A DNA stretch of 32,000 bases, taken from positions 1 through 32,000 of the forward strand of contig CAZECW010000003.1 in NCBI GenBank assembly GCA_964510585.1. Direction: 5' to 3'. Source of the DNA: an uncultured archaeon (lineage in GTDB: Archaea > Asgardarchaeota > Jordiarchaeia > Jordiarchaeales > Jordiarchaeaceae). Within the stretch, counting starts at the first letter, position 1. Each line of letters starts with the position of its first letter. The notes under the pieces were generated by a model. The model was not told the DNA's origin. It searched no databases and saw only the letters and a program-made list of their open reading frames with translations. The position numbers and the translations under genes were made by a program. This document shows positions 3,948 through 31,827 of the stretch, piece after piece.

Positions 3948-5630
3948 TCACGCAGTCCTTGGGATGGCTAGCTTTCCGAGAAGAAGTTCCCTTGCAGTTT
4001 CAAATGCGGCCATGTGGTCGAAGACAGCTTTTCCTTTAACTTCCTTAGCCTTTCTTAGTAGATTTTCCTCGACTTGTCTTTTTAGCGCACCAATAGCCAG
4101 TGAGCCAATGCCGTAAACTCCGGGTTTCAACTCCTTCTTGTCATCGTTTCTGTCAAGCCCACCTATTCCCAGGGGAGGGACGGCGTTAACGTCGAGGAGC
4201 AATTTTTTCGGTTTGAGGCTTTCTACGTCTTCTCTGCTGAGGAGTTGTACACCTGCCTTTGCAACAGAGAATACCATGTCAGCGTCCTGCACTATTTCCA
4301 TTATTTGCTCCTTGTTTGGAGCGAATATTCCTTTGATTTCTACACCAAACTTTTCGTTTAGATCCGAGGCTACCGTTTTCACATATTGTACACTGGCACC
4401 AGACCAGGTTTCCACCATGTAAACTTTGCAGCCAAGCTTTGCTGCTAATACGCAGGCGAATCTTCCTACCGGTCCTGTTCCCCCTAGAACTGCAACTTTC
4501 ATTTTTTCAATATTGCCCAGATTAAGGGTAACCACGGCTTCTTCAGCTTTTGCTACCAGTGCTGAGGCGGTGGTGCAAGCTCCTCTTGGATCAAAAATTA
4601 TTGGCACTTCGAAGGGCGGCACCAAGGATTTAACGGCTTTCTCGAATATTTCCTGGGCTTGATTCACATTGCTTCCACCGACAAAGATTGCGGTGTATTT
4701 TGCGCCTTTAGGTCCTCGGGAGAATATTATGTCTTGTACCAGTCTTTGAGCGTCTTCAGGCTTTACTCCACCCAGAGGAATGACCACATCGAAACCCGCG
4801 TCGTAAGCCATATTCATGTCAAATGGACTTGCATGCTGGTCAGTATCTAAGAAGTATAATATGTGTTGTCTCTGCTCCTTCTTCTTCACAACTATGGGTA
4901 TTATTTCAACATGGTTAGATTCTAGAAGGTTAGATAGTTCAGTGCTTTCCTCTTTGCTATTTATTTCCTTTTTTGCTTTAACCACGACTAAATCTACATC
5001 TAGATCGGTGCAGAGCTTGGATATTCCGTCTGCGTGACGTGGGTCACATATGAGCATGCCGGTGACATTTTTCTTTTTGATTTCTCTTGCCTGATTTAGG
5101 ACGCCACTCATTATCCACGCTTCGCGAACCCTAAATTTTATGTCGTCTTCAATTTCCTTCAAGTTTTGTTCAAAGTATTGAGCCAAAGTAGCCAGTTTTA
5201 GGAAGTTTTCATCATTCTTTTTTGCTTCTGGATTTTTGGCTAGGACTTTCGTAATCTGTTCAATTAGAATGTTTCTTAGTTCCTGTTTTCTGCTCATTGT
5301 GGACCAGATGTAGTCGCGGGCGTTATCTGCAATGTCCACATAGCTGTAAGGGATTCCATGTTTTTTAAAAACATCCACTAGAGGATTATCGTATAGAAAC
5401 TCTTCAATGCTTCTCATCCCCCTCTCCTCAAGGCAAAAGTCGGGTTTGTACTCTTCGACCATCTTGTTTATGAATTCCCTGTACTCCTTGGACATTATTC
5501 TCAGTTCTGAGAAAAAGTCTTTAGGAGGATTGAATGGTTCTAGCAGGTACCAGTCGATTCCGTATTCGCTTTCAACCATAACCAACCTTAGTTTCTGTCC
5601 CTTCAGTGGCTCTAACTCTAAAACTTCCAT
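3948..5630 (-). CDS. Fusion: N-terminal uncharacterised ~220-250 aa domain plus C-terminal NAD(P)-dependent methylene-H4MPT dehydrogenase (MtdB/MtdA family)
   Basis: From residue 256: SPFDMNMAYDAGFD, QDIIFSRGP, AIFVGG, DPRGACTT, LGGTGPVG, DVNAVPPLGI, GIGSLAIG, matching MtdB-family motifs (SPFDVNMAIDAGF, QDSIFSR, DVNAVPP). GGAGG RBS precedes the ATG. Confidence 0.88.
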   Translation of the reverse strand: MEVLELEPLKGQKLRLVMVESEYGIDWYLLEPFNPPKDFFSELRIMSKEYREFINKMVEEYKPDFCLEERGMRSIEEFLYDNPLVDVFKKHGIPYSYVDIADNARDYIWSTMSRKQELRNILIEQITKVLAKNPEAKKNDENFLKLATLAQYFEQNLKEIEDDIKFRVREAWIMSGVLNQAREIKKKNVTGMLICDPRHADGISKLCTDLDVDLVVVKAKKEINSKEESTELSNLLESNHVEIIPIVVKKKEQRQHILYFLDTDQHASPFDMNMAYDAGFDVVIPLGGVKPEDAQRLVQDIIFSRGPKGAKYTAIFVGGSNVNQAQEIFEKAVKSLVPPFEVPIIFDPRGACTTASALVAKAEEAVVTLNLGNIEKMKVAVLGGTGPVGRFACVLAAKLGCKVYMVETWSGASVQYVKTVASDLNEKFGVEIKGIFAPNKEQIMEIVQDADMVFSVAKAGVQLLSREDVESLKPKKLLLDVNAVPPLGIGGLDRNDDKKELKPGVYGIGSLAIGALKRQVEENLLRKAKEVKGKAVFDHMAAFETARELLLGKLAIPRTA

Positions 5631-5661
5631 TATTCGCCCTCCAAAATAATTTTTTAGTTTT

Positions 5662-6306
5662 TTAGTGTACCAATTCAGTTTGCCTCACACTGGTAGCTGA
5701 TCTCATCGGCAGAACTACCAAGTCTGTTTCGCTCATTTGTTTTGCTAATTCATTGAATAGATTGGATGGGGTGATGTGTATGCAGGTTACTTCTTTTTCA
5801 GGCACTTCGCTGGCCAGGTCGATTAATTGTTTTATTATCCACCTGGCGGTTATCACAGTGTTCATGTATTCCTCTTTTCCGTCTGCTTCCTTCTCGTAGA
5901 ATTCTATTAGGGATTTCAGGTTTTGTGCCTTGTAGGTGCTCGCGTTTTTAGGGTTCTCAGAGAGGAATCTTTCCAATTCTTCCTTTAATTCTTCTATTTT
6001 TTCTCTTAGGTCATCTATTTCCTGTTCCAAATATAGTCGGGCGTTTTGGGGTATTCCTAATCTGAAGAGTGGAACCCCTAACTCTCTGAATTCTTCCGTA
6101 TTCACGCTCTGACCGTTAACGCCAAACATGCAATCTTTGTCTGCAGTGATAAAGTCGGGATGATAGGTTAGAATAACGTTTAGTAAGGAGTTATCGGCCT
6201 GTTCGGTGAAGCAATCAGAATTTTTGGAAGCCTGGGAATTTCCTTCTTCATACAATACCACCGTGAGGATTTTCCCACGCAATTTTTTAATTTCCAATTC
6301 TTCCAT
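5662..6306 (-). CDS. Uncharacterised protein, stand-alone paralog of the N-terminal domain of the downstream Mtd fusion, with a coiled-coil insert
   Basis: GGAGG RBS before ATG 6306 (MEELEIKK). 31 nt gap to the next co-oriented gene. Aligns colinearly with residues 1-217 of ORF 3948-5630. Confidence 0.8.
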   Translation of the reverse strand: MEELEIKKLRGKILTVVLYEEGNSQASKNSDCFTEQADNSLLNVILTYHPDFITADKDCMFGVNGQSVNTEEFRELGVPLFRLGIPQNARLYLEQEIDDLREKIEELKEELERFLSENPKNASTYKAQNLKSLIEFYEKEADGKEEYMNTVITARWIIKQLIDLASEVPEKEVTCIHITPSNLFNELAKQMSETDLVVLPMRSATSVRQTELVH

Positions 6307-6394
6307 CTTTTTCCTTCCTCCATTTATTCTCTGGTTAAACAATAGAAGGATGTTAGGATTTAAAACTAATCTTAACTTGTCTTTTCTGAATTAT

Positions 6395-6410
6395 GACAAT
6401 TTTAATTGTC
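6395..6410. promoter_or_regulatory. Palindromic operator candidate 1 (GACAA-N6-TTGTC)
   Basis: GACAATT-TT-AATTGTC. Lies about 30 nt upstream of a minus-strand TTTTAAAT box (6358-6365) serving the leftward operon. Confidence 0.65.
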
Positions 6411-6549
6411 TTGAAAATTGTTGTATAGTTTGAATAAAAAGAGGAAAATTCATTTTTTTTGACAATTAAATTTTATTCCAAAAATTGTCTGGCAAGTCAA
6501 TTTTATTAATCCAGTTACGATAGCCATTAAGACAATAAGAATGATGTAT

Positions 6550-6569
6550 TTGACAAATATAATTGTCAA
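6550..6569. promoter_or_regulatory. Palindromic operator candidate 2 (TTGACAA-N6-TTGTCAA)
   Basis: TTGACAA-ATATAA-TTGTCAA. Lies just upstream of GAAAA-TTTTTATTAA (6581-6595), the BRE/TATA candidate for the rightward operon. Confidence 0.65.
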
Positions 6570-6620
6570 TTTTAATTTACGAAAATTTTTATTAACCAAT
6601 AAACTCTCCTTGATAAATTG

Positions 6621-9167
6621 GTGAAAAAATATAACGCAGTGACACAGATGGACTTATATAATGTTTTAGGCCACCCTCTCAGAAGAAAAATCCTCCTATT
6701 ATTAGAAAAAGAGGGTTACATGCAGTACTCAGATCTTCTCAAGGAGCTCAACATTGAAACAACGGGACAGTTGAATTTTCACCTCACAAAGCTGGGGAAC
6801 CTAATTACCAAAGAGGGAAAGGCTTACAAGCTCTCGGAAGAAGGAAAAACGGTCATCAAAATAATGGAGTTAAATGAGAAGATTCTCTCAGGTGAAGAGA
6901 TAGAAAGAATCGAGTCTCGAAAAACTGAGTTAAGCCGCGTGGGGATACTTATCTGTACCTGTGGTTCAGAGATTGAGCAGTCAATTAGTGTTGAGGCTTT
7001 GAAGAACCGTGTGTCTCGCATAAATAATGTGGTGTCCGTTGCGGTTTTTGATAATCTTTGTCAGGAGAAGAATCAGAAGAAGATTCAGAAATGGTTTAAG
7101 GACAATTTCATAAATAAGGTGGTTATTGCTGCCTGCAGTCCTCGTACGCACTCTCATATATTTAACCGCATATTTGAGAATCTTATACCCATAACAAACA
7201 TTGATTTTGCTAATATTAGGGAGCAATTATGCTGGGTGAATTCTAAAAAGCCTGTTGAAGCCTTGGAAAAAGCGGGGTTACTCATTGAGGCTGCTGTGGA
7301 GAGGGTTATCCTTCAAAGAGAGATTAAAACCAAAACTGTTGAGGTTCAAAAAAGCGTGGCTGTTATTGGTGGGGGCATTGCGGGTATGAATTTGGCTTTA
7401 AAGTTGGCGGAGGCCGGGTTGAAAGTTTATCTTATTGAAAAGTCGCCTACTCTGGGGGGGAAGGTTGCAAGGTGGAGCAAGATTGAGGGCGTCCTAGACT
7501 GCGCATCCTGTTTCCTCTCGGAACAGATTCTGTATTTGGTGCAGGAGAAAAATATTGAGATTCTCACCAATACTGAAATTCTATCCGTTTCTGGAAATGC
7601 GGGGAACTTCACCATTGAATTGGTTCGCAAGCCACGTTACGTGGATGAAAATAAGTGTACTGGTTGTAAACGGTGTATGAGTATATGCACTATTACTAAG
7701 AAAAACGAGTATGAGTACGGTTTGGATGAGAGGAAGCTAATCTACATTCCCTTTGTTCAGGCCTATCCTTATGCGGCGACCATAGATGAGGAGGATATTG
7801 AGAAATGTAGAGAATGCCGGGTCTGTGAAAGAGCCTGTCTAAATAAAGCCATAAATCTGGATCAGAAGCCTACAACAATGACCATAAAGGTTGGGGCAAA
7901 AGTTCTGGCAATTGGCTCCGACCTTTACCAAGACTTAAAGCTTTATAATCATAACCCGCGTTGGGACATCGTCACCTCTGCGGAGTTTGAGAGAATTCTT
8001 GCCTCTGACGGTCCCACACAGGGCAATCTTGTAAAACTTTCTGATGGCAAGGCGCCGCAAAAAATTGTAATTATTCAGGGTGTGGGCGATTACAGTCTTA
8101 GTTCCGATTACTGTTACATACTGTCCAGAAAGTATCTAGAAGCGATTCGGGAGAAGCTTCCCAGCTGCGAAGTTAAAGTTTTTATAGAGAACAGTAAGAG
8201 CGCTGCAAATAGGTTGGCACTCGCTAACCTGCCGGAAACTGTTCATACTGGCAAAGTATTAGGGATAAAAGTGGAGGGCGAAAGGAAAGTGATAAGTACT
8301 GAGAGGGGAGACTTTGAATCAGACATGGTTATTCTAAACATAGGTATGGTTCCAAGTAGGGAGCTGGCTGAGCTTCGCAAAACTTTGGATTTCGCTTTTG
8401 ATGATAAGGGTTTTATGTCCAAAGAGACACTGAGCTCAGGGATTTTTGGGTGTGGGACTGTTACCGGGCCTAAAGATTATCACACGGCTATAGCGGAATC
8501 TAATGAAGTAGCTCTTCAAATAATTTCTCTATTATCAAGGGATTATTTACTTGCAGACATTAGCGGTATAGATATTGACTATGATAAGTGTGGTTTATGC
8601 GGTTTGTGTATGTCTGTCTGCCCCTTTAACGCTATATCCTGTGAAGACGACAGGATTACCATTGACGATTTCAAGTGTAAGGGCTGCGGAGTCTGCGTAA
8701 GCATTTGCCCCACAAAGGCATTGGAGATGAATGTGATAACAAGAGAAAAGATTCTCAGATCCATAGAAGTTTATAGCAAGTATAGCCACAAACCCAAAAT
8801 TATGGCTTTTTGCTGTGAGCATTGCGGGTATGCGGCGGCGGATGAGGCGGGCCTAAGGAAAATACAGTACCATCCCAATATTTTCGTTGAAATGGTTCCC
8901 TGTACTGGTAGAGTGGACACCGAGTTTATTTTAAAGGCGTTGGAAAAAGGATTCGATGGGGTGCTAGTTGTAGGGTGTAAGTATGGCTCATGCAGGTACA
9001 TAGATGGAATCAACAAGTTGGAGAAAAAAATCAAAATACTGAAAGATGTGGGAATTCCCCAAATAGAGGATAGACTGGTTCTTTCATCGCTAAACGCGGT
9101 GGAAGGCTACAGGTTCGCAGAGATAGTGAACCTAATGCAGAATAAATTGTCGGAGATGATGATGTGA
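6621..9167 (+). CDS. hdrA: Winged-HTH :: HdrA-like flavoprotein :: MvhD triple fusion (start GTG 6621, or TTG 6618 / ATG 6648)
   Basis: Residues ~10-85 are an ArsR-like wHTH (LGHPLRRKILLLL...GQLNFHL..L...Y.LSEEG). HdrA motifs: ICTCG, AACSP, NIREQ, IGGGIAG, DCASC, EFER...GP, GPKD. Four CxxCxxCxxxC motifs. C-terminal MvhD motifs: FCCxxCGYAAAD, PCTGRVD, GCxxGSCRY. Confidence 0.9.
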   Translation: MKKYNAVTQMDLYNVLGHPLRRKILLLLEKEGYMQYSDLLKELNIETTGQLNFHLTKLGNLITKEGKAYKLSEEGKTVIKIMELNEKILSGEEIERIESRKTELSRVGILICTCGSEIEQSISVEALKNRVSRINNVVSVAVFDNLCQEKNQKKIQKWFKDNFINKVVIAACSPRTHSHIFNRIFENLIPITNIDFANIREQLCWVNSKKPVEALEKAGLLIEAAVERVILQREIKTKTVEVQKSVAVIGGGIAGMNLALKLAEAGLKVYLIEKSPTLGGKVARWSKIEGVLDCASCFLSEQILYLVQEKNIEILTNTEILSVSGNAGNFTIELVRKPRYVDENKCTGCKRCMSICTITKKNEYEYGLDERKLIYIPFVQAYPYAATIDEEDIEKCRECRVCERACLNKAINLDQKPTTMTIKVGAKVLAIGSDLYQDLKLYNHNPRWDIVTSAEFERILASDGPTQGNLVKLSDGKAPQKIVIIQGVGDYSLSSDYCYILSRKYLEAIREKLPSCEVKVFIENSKSAANRLALANLPETVHTGKVLGIKVEGERKVISTERGDFESDMVILNIGMVPSRELAELRKTLDFAFDDKGFMSKETLSSGIFGCGTVTGPKDYHTAIAESNEVALQIISLLSRDYLLADISGIDIDYDKCGLCGLCMSVCPFNAISCEDDRITIDDFKCKGCGVCVSICPTKALEMNVITREKILRSIEVYSKYSHKPKIMAFCCEHCGYAAADEAGLRKIQYHPNIFVEMVPCTGRVDTEFILKALEKGFDGVLVVGCKYGSCRYIDGINKLEKKIKILKDVGIPQIEDRLVLSSLNAVEGYRFAEIVNLMQNKLSEMMM

Positions 9168-9922
9168 AACTAAAATTTTCAGCAATCTCCCTTAACTCTT
9201 GCAACGGTTGCATCTCCACCCTTACCTGTCTAGATGTTTTCCTCAACCTTGTAAAATCCGCGGAAATAGTATACTTCCCCTTTGTTGAGGACTCCTACCC
9301 CGCCACAATAAAGGAAGACGAAGAACTAAAATATTCTGACGTTACCCTTGTTGAGGGATGTGTTACCCAGAAGGATGAAGAAATATTACTGAAAAAGCTG
9401 CGAAAAGCATCCAAAAAAATAATTGCACTCGGCGCCTGCGCTATGTTTGGGGGGATAGAAAGCCTATCACAGAATGCTCGAAGGGACCCTCTCTCTAAAA
9501 TCATAGAAATCGATGGATGTATACCGGGTTGCCCCCCACCTGAAAATGTTCTGGGAGCATCTATACTTTCACTAATTGAGGGCAGGAATCTTCCCGAAGC
9601 AAGCAGGAATCTCTGTGCAGTTTGCGATTTGAGGCCCAAACTGGAAAAATTCAAAACAATCCGTATAGAGAAATTACAACCCCAAAAGTTTCCCACCAGC
9701 TGTTTCCTCGACGAAAACGTGCTCTGTTTAGGTCCGGTGACCCGTGAAGGATGCGATGCAAAGTGTATCAAAGTGGGGCTGCCCTGTGAGGGGTGTATGG
9801 GGCCTCCCAACGGTTTAGACTATACTGCTAATGTAATCAACTTCCTCTCAACACTGGAATTATCAGAAAAGTTGAGAACTTATGAAGGAATTATTTTTAG
9901 GCTTCGCCGCCCAAGGACGTGA
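9164..9922 (+). CDS. mvhG: [NiFe]-hydrogenase small subunit, MvhG/VhuG-like (group 3c-type)
   Basis: SCNGC, VEGC, LGACA, PGCPP, plus distal CAVC..CFL..CLGPVT..GC...C...PCEGCMGP. GTG start overlaps the hdrA stop by 4 nt (GTGA). Confidence 0.88.
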   Translation: MKLKFSAISLNSCNGCISTLTCLDVFLNLVKSAEIVYFPFVEDSYPATIKEDEELKYSDVTLVEGCVTQKDEEILLKKLRKASKKIIALGACAMFGGIESLSQNARRDPLSKIIEIDGCIPGCPPPENVLGASILSLIEGRNLPEASRNLCAVCDLRPKLEKFKTIRIEKLQPQKFPTSCFLDENVLCLGPVTREGCDAKCIKVGLPCEGCMGPPNGLDYTANVINFLSTLELSEKLRTYEGIIFRLRRPRT

Positions 9923-9928
9923 AATGGA

Positions 9929-11260
9929 ATGAAGAAAATTATTGAACCGGTTACAAGAATTGAGGGACACGGGAAAATAACAGTATACCTTAATGATAAG
10001 GAAGTCTCCAACGCTAATTTTGACATGTATCTACCTCGAGGATTCGAAAAAATTTTAGTGGGAAAATTGGTGGAAGATGTTCCCAGAATCACATCCCGAA
10101 TATGTGGACTCTGCTCCTCAGCACACGCAATAGCAGCCTGCAAAGCATTGGAAAAAATATATGACGTTACCCCATCTAAATCCTCCATTCTTATGAGAAA
10201 ACTCCTCCTTGCCGGAGAGCTTATAAGATCCCATGCATTGCACTTCTTTTACTTTGCACTTCCCGACCTAAAAGCATTGATAGAAAATGATTATGAAAGG
10301 TATAGTGTCCAACAGTTCTCAAAAATAGAAACAGACCTAGTTGAAAAATTGTTCAGAGTAATTAGAATTGGAAATGAGCTCCTAGACCGCATTGGGGGAA
10401 GGGTACCCCACCCAGTAACCAGCGTAGTGGGCGGAATCTCTAAAAAATTAACAGAAAAAGAAGTGGTAGGACTACAGTCTAACCTTAGAAGAGGCGCCAG
10501 CACAGTGAGAGGAATAATAGAGAAACTATTAGAGTACATGGGTAAGATTGGTGAGCCGCAAGAATTCTTCAACATGGACGAAACAGCATTTATGGCACTA
10601 AATGAAGGCGGCAACTTCAACCTATATGAAGGAAAACTCCGCATCACCAAAGAAAAAAAGATTCTGGCAGACTTCGAACCAGAACAATACACCAAATACA
10701 TAGAAATTGAGAAAAAATCACAGGGAATCCAAATTAAACTTAACGGAGAAAAGCTAGTATTAACCGGGCCCATGGCCAGAAACCAAATAATCGAGAGATA
10801 CGGGGCCTACGAAGTACACAGCTTGATGGAAGAAGTGCCCACCAGCTGGAAGGAAAGCCTTCTTTACTCAAACTTTCTCAGACTCATAGAAATACTTGCC
10901 TCGATATACGATGCAATACTCATACTCAACGAGCCAGAACTAATGGAAGAACGAGAACTTCCCCAACTCAACAAAATCGCCACACCAATAGGCATCGGAG
11001 TGGTAGAAGCACCCAGAGGAACACTAATACACCAGTACAAAGTAAACACTAAAAACACAGTTGAATCAGCAACCATCATCACCCCCACAGAACTCAACCT
11101 CCCCACCATCAACCAAAAATTACTAGAAACATGCAGAGACAGCTACCAAAACACACAAAACATAGAGAAACTAAAAGAAAACGCAAAAAGAGTCATAAGA
11201 ACATTCGACCCCTGCGTCTCATGCGCAACCCACCTAATCGTCAAAATAATCCACCAATAA
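9929..11260 (+). CDS. mvhA: [NiFe]-hydrogenase large subunit, MvhA-like
   Basis: EPVTRIEGHG, PRGFE, L1 RICGLC, EAPRGTLIH, L2 DPCVSCATH followed by an 8-aa extension. Confidence 0.9.
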   Translation: MKKIIEPVTRIEGHGKITVYLNDKEVSNANFDMYLPRGFEKILVGKLVEDVPRITSRICGLCSSAHAIAACKALEKIYDVTPSKSSILMRKLLLAGELIRSHALHFFYFALPDLKALIENDYERYSVQQFSKIETDLVEKLFRVIRIGNELLDRIGGRVPHPVTSVVGGISKKLTEKEVVGLQSNLRRGASTVRGIIEKLLEYMGKIGEPQEFFNMDETAFMALNEGGNFNLYEGKLRITKEKKILADFEPEQYTKYIEIEKKSQGIQIKLNGEKLVLTGPMARNQIIERYGAYEVHSLMEEVPTSWKESLLYSNFLRLIEILASIYDAILILNEPELMEERELPQLNKIATPIGIGVVEAPRGTLIHQYKVNTKNTVESATIITPTELNLPTINQKLLETCRDSYQNTQNIEKLKENAKRVIRTFDPCVSCATHLIVKIIHQ

Positions 11261-14080: not shown

Positions 14081-16786
14081 TTATGTTGGGAAGGCTGTTT
14101 TTATTTCTTCGTAGAGTTCGGGGAAGCTGTTTAACCATTCTTTTCTTTCTTTTTTGAGTTGTTGAACCATTTCTTCTATTTGCTCAATGCTGTACCACCT
14201 TTCTAGTTTAAATTTTTCCATGTCTACGCCTTCCACCTCTTTGGGCACTAATGTGCCGAAGTATGGTTCGGGTATCCACTCTATGTTGTTTCTGGCTATG
14301 CCTCGGATTATGGAGGCCATTTCTTTTATCTGGATTCGTTCCACTTTTCTCTTAATTATGCTTATTCCTTCTTCATTTACTTCTCTAAGTTCTCCCACTC
14401 CACCGGTGTTTATAAGGTAGCACTGCACCTTGTCTCCCAGTCCTTTTAGTATTTCGTAGAACCTGTTTCCCTCTTGGCCTTTGCTTCCCACTATGAAGGG
14501 ATTTGTTCCTACTTCGCGTACTGACTGTCCTGCTCTTTTGGGGTCGCTTCCCGAACTTTCAATTGATTCTCCAAGCATGAATGCGGCTGCGGCTTGTTCA
14601 ATGGTTAGTTTGGATGCTATTGGTACTACGGTGTTTCTTCTGGTAATCATTAGGACTATTAGTCCGTCGACGTCTTTTAGGGGAGGGAGGTTAACTGAGG
14701 GGCTTTTGTACTTTCCAAAGTCGTCTCTCTGCATTATTCCGCGTCCGTTGCCTGTGAGTATGTCGCTTTCAAATAGCACGTTTCCCTTGTAGTCCACCAT
14801 AACGTTTTCCAGTATAGCGCTGGGTTTGGTCACCGCATTGTAGATTAGGGGCTGTATTTCTGGGTTTAGGTCTTCTGTTTTTAGGTAGAATCCTCTCTCG
14901 GTTCCTAGGGCTGAGCCGTCTGGTCTTAGTGCTACGAAGTCGTCTTGTACTATTTCGATTCCCTCACCATCTGCTTCGTTAAGGTCGTGGGTGTGGCAGC
15001 TGTGGGTGGTTTTACCTGTTGCGGTGAGTCCGAATATTAGCGTATTGTACGTTTTTATTTTTCCCGTTTTGGCATCTCTTGCTCTTATGATTTTTGCTCC
15101 GGCGTGTAATCCGAGCATTCCCTGCTGTTTGGCGAACCACATGGCCATTCTCAAGAAGCCCTTTTTAGCCTCGCCGTAATAGTCGGTTCCCAGAATGAAT
15201 GTTACTCCAATTTCTGGAAATACTATTATTTGTCGGTCCTTTTCCTGCCATTCTGGAATGTAAACTATGTATAGGTGGGGGCCGTTATAGTTTTCTTTTG
15301 GGTCGAATAGTGTTTGGTTGACCATGTGGGCCAGCCTAATCATTTCTCCCCTGTGTACGGAGACGTAGAGGGTGCATCTGGGTGTGAAGTAGGGGTTATC
15401 TCCCATGGTGCGGTCAGTGCACACAAATGGTGCGCTCTTAATGTATTGGAGGACGTCGCTCATTGTTTTGGGTAGGTTTTTCATAAGTTCCTTCTGTTTG
15501 GGGCTCATCTCGTATTGGACTACTTCTGGGCTTCCCACGATTATGGTTAGGCCTGCGCTTCTGTTTTTCACGGTGGAGACGAAATTATAGTTGTTGAACT
15601 TTGTTTTGGTGCCATAGGCTTCCGCCATCTCCCTGATTTTTTGTTCTGATAGGTGTTTAACATTGCTTCTATTGTAGAGCTTTTCCACGGCTTGCCTTAT
15701 TTCGTTTAGGTCTATTTGGGAGATGATTTCGTCAATTTCGGCTTTTGCCCTCTCCTTTTCTTCTATTAATGGTTCGAGATATTCTTTGGTGGTAATTATT
15801 CTTCTTACTTCCTTTTGCATTTCCAAAAGGGGATGGGCTAAATTCAGGTAGTATACCGCTGCGAATTTGAAAATATTCTTGTAAAATTCAATTTCAAGCT
15901 TTTCTCGCTTACTGCTCCGTACCATTAGGTAGGGATTGAAGAATGGCTGCTGGGAATGTGTGAGAATCTTTATGGCTTCCTGTGGGGTGAGACGCTTAGC
16001 AATTCTTGGATCCTTGCGATAATTTACAAGTAGAAAAATGAGCTTAATACGGGTGGTGTCCACATATTTTTCATTTCCACCTATCCACCAAGGGTCGAGC
16101 ATAAAGTGGTTATTTTCCTTTTTGCTTTTTTCGTATAGTGCCTGGAGTCTTGGATAAATTTTTATGAGTTCTTTTTTTAGGAAGAATTTTCTCTCAGAGA
16201 CCGATGTAGATATGCGCCCCTTTTCTCCACCAAGTTGCTCCACATATATTATGTCGTCTGAGTGTATTCTGGCTCTATCCATCTCTAAAAGGAGGAATGC
16301 ATTTGTGCTGACTCCCCGCCCAGTTTCACCCATGAAGGCTACGCCCTCACCATTAATGTCTACCAGACTACCCCTCAGAAAGTTTAATCTCTCCTGTTCC
16401 TCGCAGACATCAGCAACAATCCCTAGGGCTAATGCCCGAACAAATTCATAGTTTCCAATATTGAATACTATTCCTGTTTTGGTTTCAGAGTTGTAATATA
16501 TTCCGGGAGGCTCGTCGTAAAGTCCAGTAGCTGCATATATTACTCCGTGGGGGCGAAGGTTGCGGTCTATGGCTGCGGGGAACCAGTTTTCTCTCCAAAA
16601 ATCATCTAAATGGGGTTCGTTGGTTCTCAATTGAATTATGTAGCCGTTTATGTTTGCGTTCCAAACGTAAATAGAATCGTAACCCATATGCCTCTCTGCT
16701 TTTTGAACCAATTCTTCCCTTTTCTCACGAGAGATTCCTACGTCGATAACGCCTTTCTTTCCGGGAACCTGCTCCATTTCAACCAT
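14081..16786 (-). CDS. pckA: ATP-dependent phosphoenolpyruvate carboxykinase with an extra N-terminal PEPCK/HprK-like P-loop domain (~901 aa)
   Basis: C-terminal ~560 aa carry YYGEAKKG, LHAG, FGLTATGKTT, VQDD, ERGFYLKT, ENV, NGRG, NPF, YLINTG. N-terminal ~340 aa carry LRGSLVDINGEGVAFMGETGRGVST...IHSDD. GAGGAG RBS is 8 nt before ATG 16786. Confidence 0.88.
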   Translation of the reverse strand: MVEMEQVPGKKGVIDVGISREKREELVQKAERHMGYDSIYVWNANINGYIIQLRTNEPHLDDFWRENWFPAAIDRNLRPHGVIYAATGLYDEPPGIYYNSETKTGIVFNIGNYEFVRALALGIVADVCEEQERLNFLRGSLVDINGEGVAFMGETGRGVSTNAFLLLEMDRARIHSDDIIYVEQLGGEKGRISTSVSERKFFLKKELIKIYPRLQALYEKSKKENNHFMLDPWWIGGNEKYVDTTRIKLIFLLVNYRKDPRIAKRLTPQEAIKILTHSQQPFFNPYLMVRSSKREKLEIEFYKNIFKFAAVYYLNLAHPLLEMQKEVRRIITTKEYLEPLIEEKERAKAEIDEIISQIDLNEIRQAVEKLYNRSNVKHLSEQKIREMAEAYGTKTKFNNYNFVSTVKNRSAGLTIIVGSPEVVQYEMSPKQKELMKNLPKTMSDVLQYIKSAPFVCTDRTMGDNPYFTPRCTLYVSVHRGEMIRLAHMVNQTLFDPKENYNGPHLYIVYIPEWQEKDRQIIVFPEIGVTFILGTDYYGEAKKGFLRMAMWFAKQQGMLGLHAGAKIIRARDAKTGKIKTYNTLIFGLTATGKTTHSCHTHDLNEADGEGIEIVQDDFVALRPDGSALGTERGFYLKTEDLNPEIQPLIYNAVTKPSAILENVMVDYKGNVLFESDILTGNGRGIMQRDDFGKYKSPSVNLPPLKDVDGLIVLMITRRNTVVPIASKLTIEQAAAAFMLGESIESSGSDPKRAGQSVREVGTNPFIVGSKGQEGNRFYEILKGLGDKVQCYLINTGGVGELREVNEEGISIIKRKVERIQIKEMASIIRGIARNNIEWIPEPYFGTLVPKEVEGVDMEKFKLERWYSIEQIEEMVQQLKKERKEWLNSFPELYEEIKTAFPT

Positions 16787-16862
16787 TCTCATTACTCCTC
16801 GGACAGGACATCCTAGCCCACAAGTCAATACGTTTTTTTTCAGATACCAAGTTAACTACACC

Positions 16863-30609: not shown

Positions 30610-31827
30610 TCAAATTTTAAACAAGTCCACTATGTCCAAAACTGGTATGCCCTCTTTTTCTGCCACTAAGCGCAGGTTGTTCTCACAGAAGGGGCACACA
30701 GTCACAATATAATCTACTCCCACCTCTTTTGCGTCCTCCACCCTCACCCGCGCAATTTTTTCAGCGAGATTCGGGAACGCTGATTTTACCCCTCCACCCG
30801 CTCCACAGCACCAAGCAGCGGTTCGATTACGTTTCATCTCAATAAACTCTAAGCCGGGCACCTTTTTTATTATTTCGCGAGGCGGCTCATAAAAATCGCA
30901 GTGACGACCAAGGTGGCAAGGATCATGATAGGTTACTTTCCTATTTTTGAAATCCTCCCTAAATTCCAGCTTCCCCTCCGCCAGTAGTCGATTTAGAATT
31001 TCGGTTATGTGAACCACCTTGAAGGGCAACTCTTTTCCGTAAATATCGGGATAGTCTTTTTTGAGGGTCCGATAGCATCCTGCACAGTGAACAACCACCT
31101 CTTTTGCACCAGCGTCTTGTAACGCCTTTATATTATGTAAGGCAAGCTCCTCTGCCAGGCTACGCATACCCGTTCTAAGCGCTACTGAGCCGCAGCAGTA
31201 CTCTTCAGGATGTATCAAAGCAGGCCGCACCCCCGCAGAGAGCAGTAGCTTTATAGTTTTTCGGATGATTTCTGGTTGCCTGTAAGGTTCGGTGCACCCC
31301 ATAAAGAACACAAGCTCGCCCCTAGACGGCAAATCAACCCCCTCCGGCATCCAGACAATCCTATCCTTATGCAGTTCCATGTAGGGATTATGCTCCTTTT
31401 TGCACCACTCCAAAATTTCCCTGTGTCGAGTCATAGGCCCGTAACCCGCATCAACCAAGTCAGCCCTCAACGCCTCGTAAATCTTGGTGTGATCCAAATA
31501 TTTTCCTATGCTAAGGTTAATATTTGGATCCATAGATTGGTGGCATGTTGCGTGGCAGTCTCCACACGTAGTGCACTGGTATATAACGTTGGCTAATTCC
31601 TGGCTGAGCTTCAGTCTTCCCTCGATGAGCCCGCGCACTATCTGCATTTTTCCACGTGCAAAGAAGGGCTCGAAACCTGGAGTGTGTTCCAGCACTGGGC
31701 AAACCTTGTATCTGCCAACAGTGTATCTCACCGCAATGCGGCAGTCACCGCAGGCAATGCAGCCATATAAGATGTCTCCTAGTTTTTTGAGGTGTCTCAG
31801 TTTCCCGATTTCTTGAGTATTAGTCAT
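30610..31827 (-). CDS. HdrD/GlcF/GlpC-like Fe-S oxidoreductase (2x[4Fe-4S] plus two CCG domains)
   Basis: CIACGDC..CP, CTTCGDCHATC, FMGC, CCGS, HCAGC, YHDPCHLGR, CCGAGGG, VCPFC. Confidence 0.92.
   Translation of the reverse strand: MTNTQEIGKLRHLKKLGDILYGCIACGDCRIAVRYTVGRYKVCPVLEHTPGFEPFFARGKMQIVRGLIEGRLKLSQELANVIYQCTTCGDCHATCHQSMDPNINLSIGKYLDHTKIYEALRADLVDAGYGPMTRHREILEWCKKEHNPYMELHKDRIVWMPEGVDLPSRGELVFFMGCTEPYRQPEIIRKTIKLLLSAGVRPALIHPEEYCCGSVALRTGMRSLAEELALHNIKALQDAGAKEVVVHCAGCYRTLKKDYPDIYGKELPFKVVHITEILNRLLAEGKLEFREDFKNRKVTYHDPCHLGRHCDFYEPPREIIKKVPGLEFIEMKRNRTAAWCCGAGGGVKSAFPNLAEKIARVRVEDAKEVGVDYIVTVCPFCENNLRLVAEKEGIPVLDIVDLFKI

Follow-up and report, generated by a model that had tools for sequence, protein, structure and literature searches.

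A winged-helix HdrA-MvhD fusion lacking HA4 cluster ligands is a candidate hydrogenase-wired transcription factor in Asgard archaea

The first 32,000 nucleotides of contig CAZECW010000003.1 (hereafter the window), from a Jordarchaeia-like Asgard genome, contain a gene at 6648-9167 (+) that joins a winged helix-turn-helix (HTH) domain to a complete HdrA and an MvhD domain and stands 5' of the hydrogenase genes mvhG and mvhA. We read its product, with a probability of roughly 0.6, as a non-bifurcating, hydrogenase-wired transcription factor that senses H2 or redox state and in which the high-potential electron exit of HdrA has become dispensable. The gene occupies a single uninterrupted open reading frame (6618/6648-9167) holding the winged helix (DUF7347), full HdrA and MvhD domain. 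It encodes 839 residues from the ATG at 6648, equivalent to the Met at which homologues begin; the frame is open from a TTG at 6618, from which residues are numbered here (protein P0001). The nearest named homologues, at 87-89%, are labelled Jordarchaeum or Jordarchaeaceae.

The winged helix (6648-6863; ArsR/HxlR-like fold, Pfam E 3.6e-13) precedes an N-terminal HdrA domain (6954-7136) with cluster ligands C113, C115, C148 and C173. The flavin adenine dinucleotide (FAD) region (7368-7511) contains the P-loop GGGIAG, a family-specific W286, K288 and the C295/C298 pair, identified by alignment and conservation, and is followed by an inserted 2x[4Fe-4S] ferredoxin domain (7635-7853) with eight invariant Cys. 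Beyond the degenerate site described below lie a C-terminal 2x[4Fe-4S] ferredoxin domain (8565-8732), assigned by domain match and conserved Cys, and the [2Fe-2S] domain of MvhD (8790-9158; FlpD E 3.8e-33). Identity to canonical HdrA is 30-34%. The AlphaFold model keeps the HdrA fold (pLDDT 84; Z 45.5 and a root-mean-square deviation of 2.7 Å over 399 residues against 8RWN), and motif (GGGxxG) and fold together indicate a thioredoxin-reductase-like core with a predicted FAD site. A preliminary description of this locus, made from the sequence alone, had listed the catalytic Lys and Glu, the GGGIAG motif, the N-terminal Cys and the ferredoxin motifs as retained, and all are near-invariant across 121 homologues: K505, E458 (7989-7991), GGGIxG, C113/115/148/173, C295/C298 and the five MvhD Cys (C733/736/762/787/792) never vary, nor do 15 of the 16 ferredoxin Cys, and the sixteenth is present in 120.

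The HA4 cluster is the high-potential exit from FAD towards HdrB (PMC12350162, PMC13580544), in agreement with the role that the preliminary description had ascribed to it, and a preprint gives the cluster in the thioredoxin-reductase domain of BamE the same role. In the present gene, nucleotides 8076-8132 translate as QGVGDYSLSSDYCYILSRK, within the uninterrupted frame. This segment aligns with that of Cys386, Cys399, Cys403 and Cys404, which we take, from the structure published in 2017, to be the HA4 ligands. These numbers are those of 5ODC, counted on the alignment, which also equates Lys409 with K505, Glu356 with E458, Lys187 with K288, and Cys194/197 with C295/C298. The register was set with deep relatives whose C-x6-C-x3-CC-x4-K motif aligns without gaps, and in it the four positions are G488, S495, C499 and Y500, ahead of the conserved K505. 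The count of one remaining Cys in four, already given in the preliminary description, was confirmed by both the 5ODC alignment and this register; pairwise phmmer had put C499 on Cys399, whereas the deep relatives place it on Cys403.

Bifurcating HdrA has four Cys at this site. There are zero to two in 44 Cys-less relatives that could be placed in register, counted in genome loci and not in the 121 database homologues: 31 have none, 11 have one and two have two, at inconsistent positions. The Cys404 position is Asp or Glu in 34 of the 44 and is the only HA4 position with a bias; the other three are hypervariable. Alternative ligands, which the preliminary description had named as a possible refutation, did not emerge, no conserved substitute set being found among the Cys-less members. 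Because the remaining Cys are few and at varying positions, a rebuilt cluster is unlikely. Judging by secondary structure, the conserved C517 opens the following strand, with the helix lying between it and the site. P0266 has a variant HA4 motif and is not Cys-less.

Two neighbouring segments, described earlier as eroded or shortened, are altered throughout the family. The D.R..G..E.Y segment of canonical HdrA is replaced (8184-8252), and the octapeptide EAHPKLRP is cleanly deleted, with its junction at K602/E603 (8421-8426). The deletion is common to all 41 HTH-fused rows compared, four-Cys members included, and all fused proteins likewise share the loss of D.R..G..E.Y and the Trp at 286. The eroded segments may correspond to the docking surface for HdrC.

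Constraint is relaxed in the HA4 region alone, the fastest-evolving part of the protein: its pN is 0.28, compared with 0.02-0.11 for the cofactor domains, and its mean identity is 44%, compared with 64-77% for the other cofactor domains. The ratio of nonsynonymous to synonymous substitution rates (dN/dS) is 0.033-0.046 for the whole gene and 0.04 for the HTH. Strong purifying selection acts on the input wire (NiFe site, MvhG clusters, MvhD, CxxC pair and FAD-site residues) and on the low-potential clusters.

The family occurs in at least 117 of 400 Asgard genomes, a lower bound since two candidates were scored per genome, and also in Bathyarchaeia. Trees were built with the HTH and HA4 columns removed, and the careful one also with 15 near-duplicate rows of the family and most of the canonical ones left out; in them the fused proteins form one clade (100/100). 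Nested within this clade, the Cys-less members group together with modest support (81/85), amounting to one or two losses. The preliminary description had asked whether Cys loss and HTH fusion go together; they do so in one direction only, and strict co-occurrence is ruled out by the 15 of 62 fused proteins that keep a shortened four-Cys motif; the representatives P0122-P0124 and P0126 keep it too. Since the Cys-less members are nested and the four-Cys fused proteins share the erosion, the sequences place the fusion and the erosion of both adjoining segments before the Cys loss.

Some further sequences can be recorded here. One genome (G304; C257 and C88) has two divergent copies of the fusion, and the copy of another (G279, locus L047) ends abruptly near residue 615. 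P0218 (Logan SRR20820740 contig, gene 672-2615) is an unrelated HTH-less HdrA with no HA4 Cys and no D.R..G segment and with Lys/Glu kept; its gene precedes mvhD, tusA, a PAS histidine kinase and a response regulator, and P0233 is a second such case. An HTH-less, Cys-less HdrA family around P0218 is ruled out, as 109 of 109 relatives found keep four Cys.

The evidence for gene control is separate from that for the cluster site. Residues T49, G50, L52, N53, F54 and H55 of the recognition helix (motif TGQLNFH) are present in 120 of 121 homologues. The domain model (pLDDT 93) has the ArsR, YodB and HxlR regulators as its nearest PDB folds, with TM-scores of at most 0.79 at E values of 2.4e-3 or above, and fold and conserved recognition helix together are those of an ArsR/HxlR-like domain. 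A two-copy complex prediction of the winged helix scored 0.40 against a mark of 0.42 and is weighed neither way. No close paralogue of this HTH was found elsewhere in the genome.

A palindrome, TTGACAA-N6-TTGTCAA, lies at 6550-6569, about 11 bp upstream of an element resembling a transcription factor B recognition element and TATA box (6581-6594); the 3.78-Mb genome contains no other perfect match. A second, with one mismatch, lies at 6393-6412 on the side of the divergent operon and is conserved in L001 and L002; both fall in the intergenic region between the divergent genes. Matches to WTGAYAA-N6-TTRTCAW with no more than one mismatch occur in 42 of 63 upstream regions of 400 bp, where other spacers give 2-5 and shuffles 0-1. 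At eight more loci, where an frhB-like gene has been inserted, the palindrome lies 1.3-1.5 kb further upstream, before this gene and thus at the start of the enlarged operon. It is by conservation that the palindrome qualifies as an operator near the fusion's own promoter. Among four-Cys lineages (37-40% identity) it precedes the fusion at 8 of 11 loci and the downstream mtd at 10 of 11, so regulation would predate the Cys loss. Within the same genus, G117 and G120 lack the fusion, the mtd match and the perfect site alike, and G115, which has the mtd fusion and no HTH-HdrA, has no site before mtd.

Besides its own operon, two divergent genes are probable targets: a 214-residue gene (5662-6306, -), which is a stand-alone copy of a domain fused to Mtd, and a methylene-tetrahydromethanopterin dehydrogenase gene (mtd; Mpt_N) with that extra N-terminal domain (3948-5630, -). 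The mtd cluster is found at 40 of the 63 loci, and the operator also precedes mtd where mtd lies downstream of mvhA. No wider regulon was found in the source genome, where spacer 6 is not enriched and the perfect site occurs at the fusion locus only. Across the phylum the perfect motif occurs 0-7 times per genome, with a similar spacer-7 background, so that only the position next to the operon is informative. Of the sensory role proposed in the preliminary description, the regulatory part is thus supported by evidence of a different kind, the invariant recognition helix and the conserved operator, while the accompanying loss of canonical bifurcation is inferred from the sequence.

The Mtd-fused domain (window 3948-6306, -), present here both alone and fused, is split off at many Lokiarchaeia-type loci and tandemly duplicated in L054 (L054:2-5019), L056 and L057. 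Loci L069-L078, L083 and L089-L092 have a further operator copy about 5.1-5.3 kb upstream of the fusion, beyond a cdc48 that follows the mtd operon.

The hydrogenase to which the fusion would be wired is encoded by mvhG (9164-9922, +), a small subunit whose cluster Cys are conserved across loci, and mvhA (9929-11260, +), a [NiFe] large subunit with RxCGxCxxxH and DPCxxCxxH intact. The operon order is fusion-mvhG-mvhA, and mvhA follows at 60 of the 63 loci. MvhA with L1 and L2 Cys motifs, MvhG and MvhD make up a group 3c [NiFe] (Mvh) set, although the best NCBIfam matches of the subunits, VhuA and VhuG, fall far below the equivalog cut-offs. The HupUV-type subunits and histidine kinase of group 2b are missing: the subunits match Vhu/Mvh, and the annotated recurrent neighbours include no kinase. 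Thirty-six MvhA partners terminate at the His of DPCxxCxxH and thus have no cleavable tail, a trait of H2-sensing hydrogenases that is also seen in some group 4 enzymes. Most Lokiarchaeia-type partners have Gln for the L1 His. Borrarchaeum-like loci L048-L051 carry the MvhA motifs KxCGFC and DPCISC(S/T)SV, with the final His gone; a close operator match is also absent there. In several Lokiarchaeia-type genomes an frhB-like F420-binding gene is inserted as the first gene of the operon (L062:4695-5810 and similar loci), and such loci adjoin a second HdrA/MvhD/FrhB cluster with intact HA4.

The preliminary description had linked its reading to an absence of HdrBC. Locally this stands: no HdrB homologue occurs at the 63 fusion loci, an HdrC-like gene is found at one, and an HdrD-like CCG gene follows mvhA at three. 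Genome-wide it does not, as contig C20 carries mvhA-mvhG-mvhD-hdrA, with an intact HA4 motif, divergent from hdrC-hdrB; the genome totals 13 canonical HA4 motifs and encodes several further HdrC-like and CCG genes in trans. Because C20 holds this canonical cluster, the fused copy appears free of the canonical job, and its paralogues can supply bifurcation. Two HdrA paralogues in the source genome (G000; C150:27318-29210 and C76:13352-15250) are split in frame by a single stop near the CxxC pair, and relatives show one TGA in such matches, which fits the selenocysteine HdrA described from Freyarchaeia (PMC11291895). The window itself has a CCG-domain (HdrD-like) gene at 30610-31827 (-), 19 kb from the operon.

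In the mechanism we propose, an HdrA-MvhD fusion gave rise to a one-component transcription factor, of which the present protein would be the sensor core. Electrons from H2 would reach FAD via MvhA, MvhG, MvhD and C295/C298, the role of the CxxC pair in the path being taken from PMC13580544. Because the HA4 ligands are gone and no HdrBC would be docked, there would be no high-potential exit, and flavin and clusters would equilibrate with the H2 or ferredoxin poise without bifurcation turnover. The winged helix may hang by a flexible linker, modelled with low confidence, on the N-terminal domain. In HdrA complexes of known structure this domain belongs to a mobile arm that rotates in the redox cycle (PMC12350162, PMC13580544). 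Since the helix is tied to this domain, arm position could set DNA binding: a change of redox state would move both helices of a dimer and alter binding to WTGAYAA-N6-TTRTCAW before the fusion's own operon and the mtd operon, with either activation or repression as the outcome. The Lys and Glu may persist as shapers of the FAD site; here they would not be a sign of bifurcation.

Several points weigh against this reading. DNA binding, cofactor content and activity are all predictions. Since the same HTH and operator are found with four-Cys members, regulation does not require the loss of HA4, which may reflect neutral decay. A working enzyme would equally explain why every electron-transfer motif and hydrogenase catalytic motif is preserved, and the MvhA of the window keeps an eight-residue tail and both His. 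The winged helix of BamF is a protein interface (10.64898/2026.04.10.717634). The operator motif was defined after the first loci had been seen, the genomes are related, and no close site occurs at L045-L052, L058, L059 or the Bathyarchaeia locus L095.

The strongest competitor, which we consider possible but clearly less probable, is that the complex is mainly metabolic, a working non-bifurcating hydrogenase that passes electrons from H2 to ferredoxin, or to F420 via an FrhB-like partner, and as a trigger enzyme also regulates its own operon and mtd. The two readings do not fully exclude each other. Such an enzyme would account for the conserved NiFe ligands, the E of RxEGH, the APRG Arg and all Fe-S motifs, for the maturation genes present in the genome, and for the frhB-like gene inserted at several Lokiarchaeia-type loci or the HdrD-like CCG gene after mvhA at three. 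It is harder to reconcile with a canonical Mvh-Hdr in the same genome, with the lack of any acceptor gene conserved beside the operon, and with the many partners that have neither maturation tail nor L1 His; in the published scheme, moreover, the low-potential electron is freed only once the first has left via HA4.

It is improbable that the winged helix serves, like that of BamF, for protein docking and that a different transcription factor reads the palindrome. The BamF precedent and the weak E values of the fold matches taken alone speak for it, but the recognition-helix residues are invariant, within genera the palindrome is present or absent together with the fusion, and the genome encodes no close paralogue of the HTH. 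Less credible still is an enzyme that continues to bifurcate, with HA4 rebuilt from other ligands or bypassed and HdrBC or HdrD encoded elsewhere. Although the Lys409/Glu356/Lys187 equivalents are kept, HdrB, HdrC and HdrD genes are plentiful in trans and the Cys404 position is mostly acidic, the other three positions are hypervariable in a group where most members have no Cys, C517 appears to lie a helix away from the site, and the neighbouring surface segments are deleted. Finally, a decaying paralogue or an assembly error, suggested by the 30-34% identity to canonical HdrA and by the one truncated member (L047), is refuted by a dN/dS of 0.03-0.05, by the 117 genomes that carry the fusion with almost no internal stops, and by independent contigs of related strains (one study, two hot-spring samples) that are gap-free across the HA4 site, which together with the same motif in close homologues exclude an assembly error.

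The favoured reading, a sensor, can be set against known systems. The fusion resembles the HdrA of MvhAGD-HdrABC and Elp-Hdr (5ODC, 8RWN; PMC12350162, PMC13580544) in fold, FAD-site Lys/Glu, CxxC pair, N-terminal cluster, four ferredoxin clusters and MvhD/G/A input. It differs in lacking the HA4 ligands, in the two eroded adjoining segments, in an operon without HdrBC, and in its N-terminal winged helix and upstream palindrome. A C-terminal MvhD fusion is shared with type Ia HdrA, HdrA2 of Methanosarcina acetivorans (PMC12054007), but the fusion lacks HA4 and the B2C2 partners, is paired with a NiFe hydrogenase and bears the winged helix; its best NCBIfam match, NF040770, scores 582 bits against a 1100-bit cut-off. 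By sequence it is homologous to type Ia HdrA yet without the four-Cys HA4 site of a bifurcating HdrA. The sHdrA of Hyphomicrobium denitrificans is regarded as non-bifurcating; it keeps the cluster and has the Lys/Glu changed, a mirror image of the fusion. The two share the HdrA-like core (6TJR, Z 33.9).

Among regulatory systems, PutA, BirA and RbkR are trigger enzymes, in which an enzyme likewise has a DNA-binding domain and controls nearby genes; none is known to be built on an electron-bifurcating hydrogenase module. The H2-sensing hydrogenases of group 2b (HoxBC/HupUV) and the group C [FeFe]-PAS fusions also tie a hydrogenase to gene control, and many MvhA partners resemble them in having no cleavable C-terminal tail. 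Group 2b and group C enzymes signal through a histidine kinase or PAS domain, whereas here a group 3c-like enzyme would have its own DNA-binding domain on the HdrA flavoprotein. Signalling by the [FeFe]-PAS fusions is described in PMC11216029. HdrR of Methanosarcina barkeri (PMC11218639) is likewise an archaeal winged-helix regulator with a palindrome before an hdr operon, but it is a separate protein controlling hdrBCA and is not reported fused to HdrA or a hydrogenase. By analogy, the present system would combine the workings of a sensory hydrogenase and a trigger enzyme. We found no description of a wHTH-HdrA-MvhD fusion in a literature search whose coverage left out most subscription papers. 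Elsewhere in the window, a PEP carboxykinase gene (14081-16828, -) has about 370 extra N-terminal residues with a weak HPr-kinase match.

Lys409 and Glu356 at flavin N5 have been used to recognize bifurcating HdrA (PMC12054007, PMC13514486). The equivalents K505 and E458 are present in 121 of 121 homologues here, and this family indicates that the pair is not sufficient as a sequence marker of bifurcation (PMC12054007). Its four-Cys and Cys-less members form a natural matched pair for an HdrA flavin without its high-potential exit. The fullest form of the proposal, which we hold to be about evenly balanced, is that in Asgard archaea and some Bathyarchaeia an entire [NiFe]-hydrogenase-HdrA complex acts as a one-component H2 sensor and binds DNA directly, the conformational gate of bifurcation having been reused as a transcriptional switch for one-carbon (mtd) and hydrogenase genes and the redundant high-potential branch then deleted. 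Archaeal H2 sensing for the control of one-carbon genes is poorly known; if the reading is true, some Asgard 'group 3c hydrogenases' now counted as energy enzymes would be regulators.

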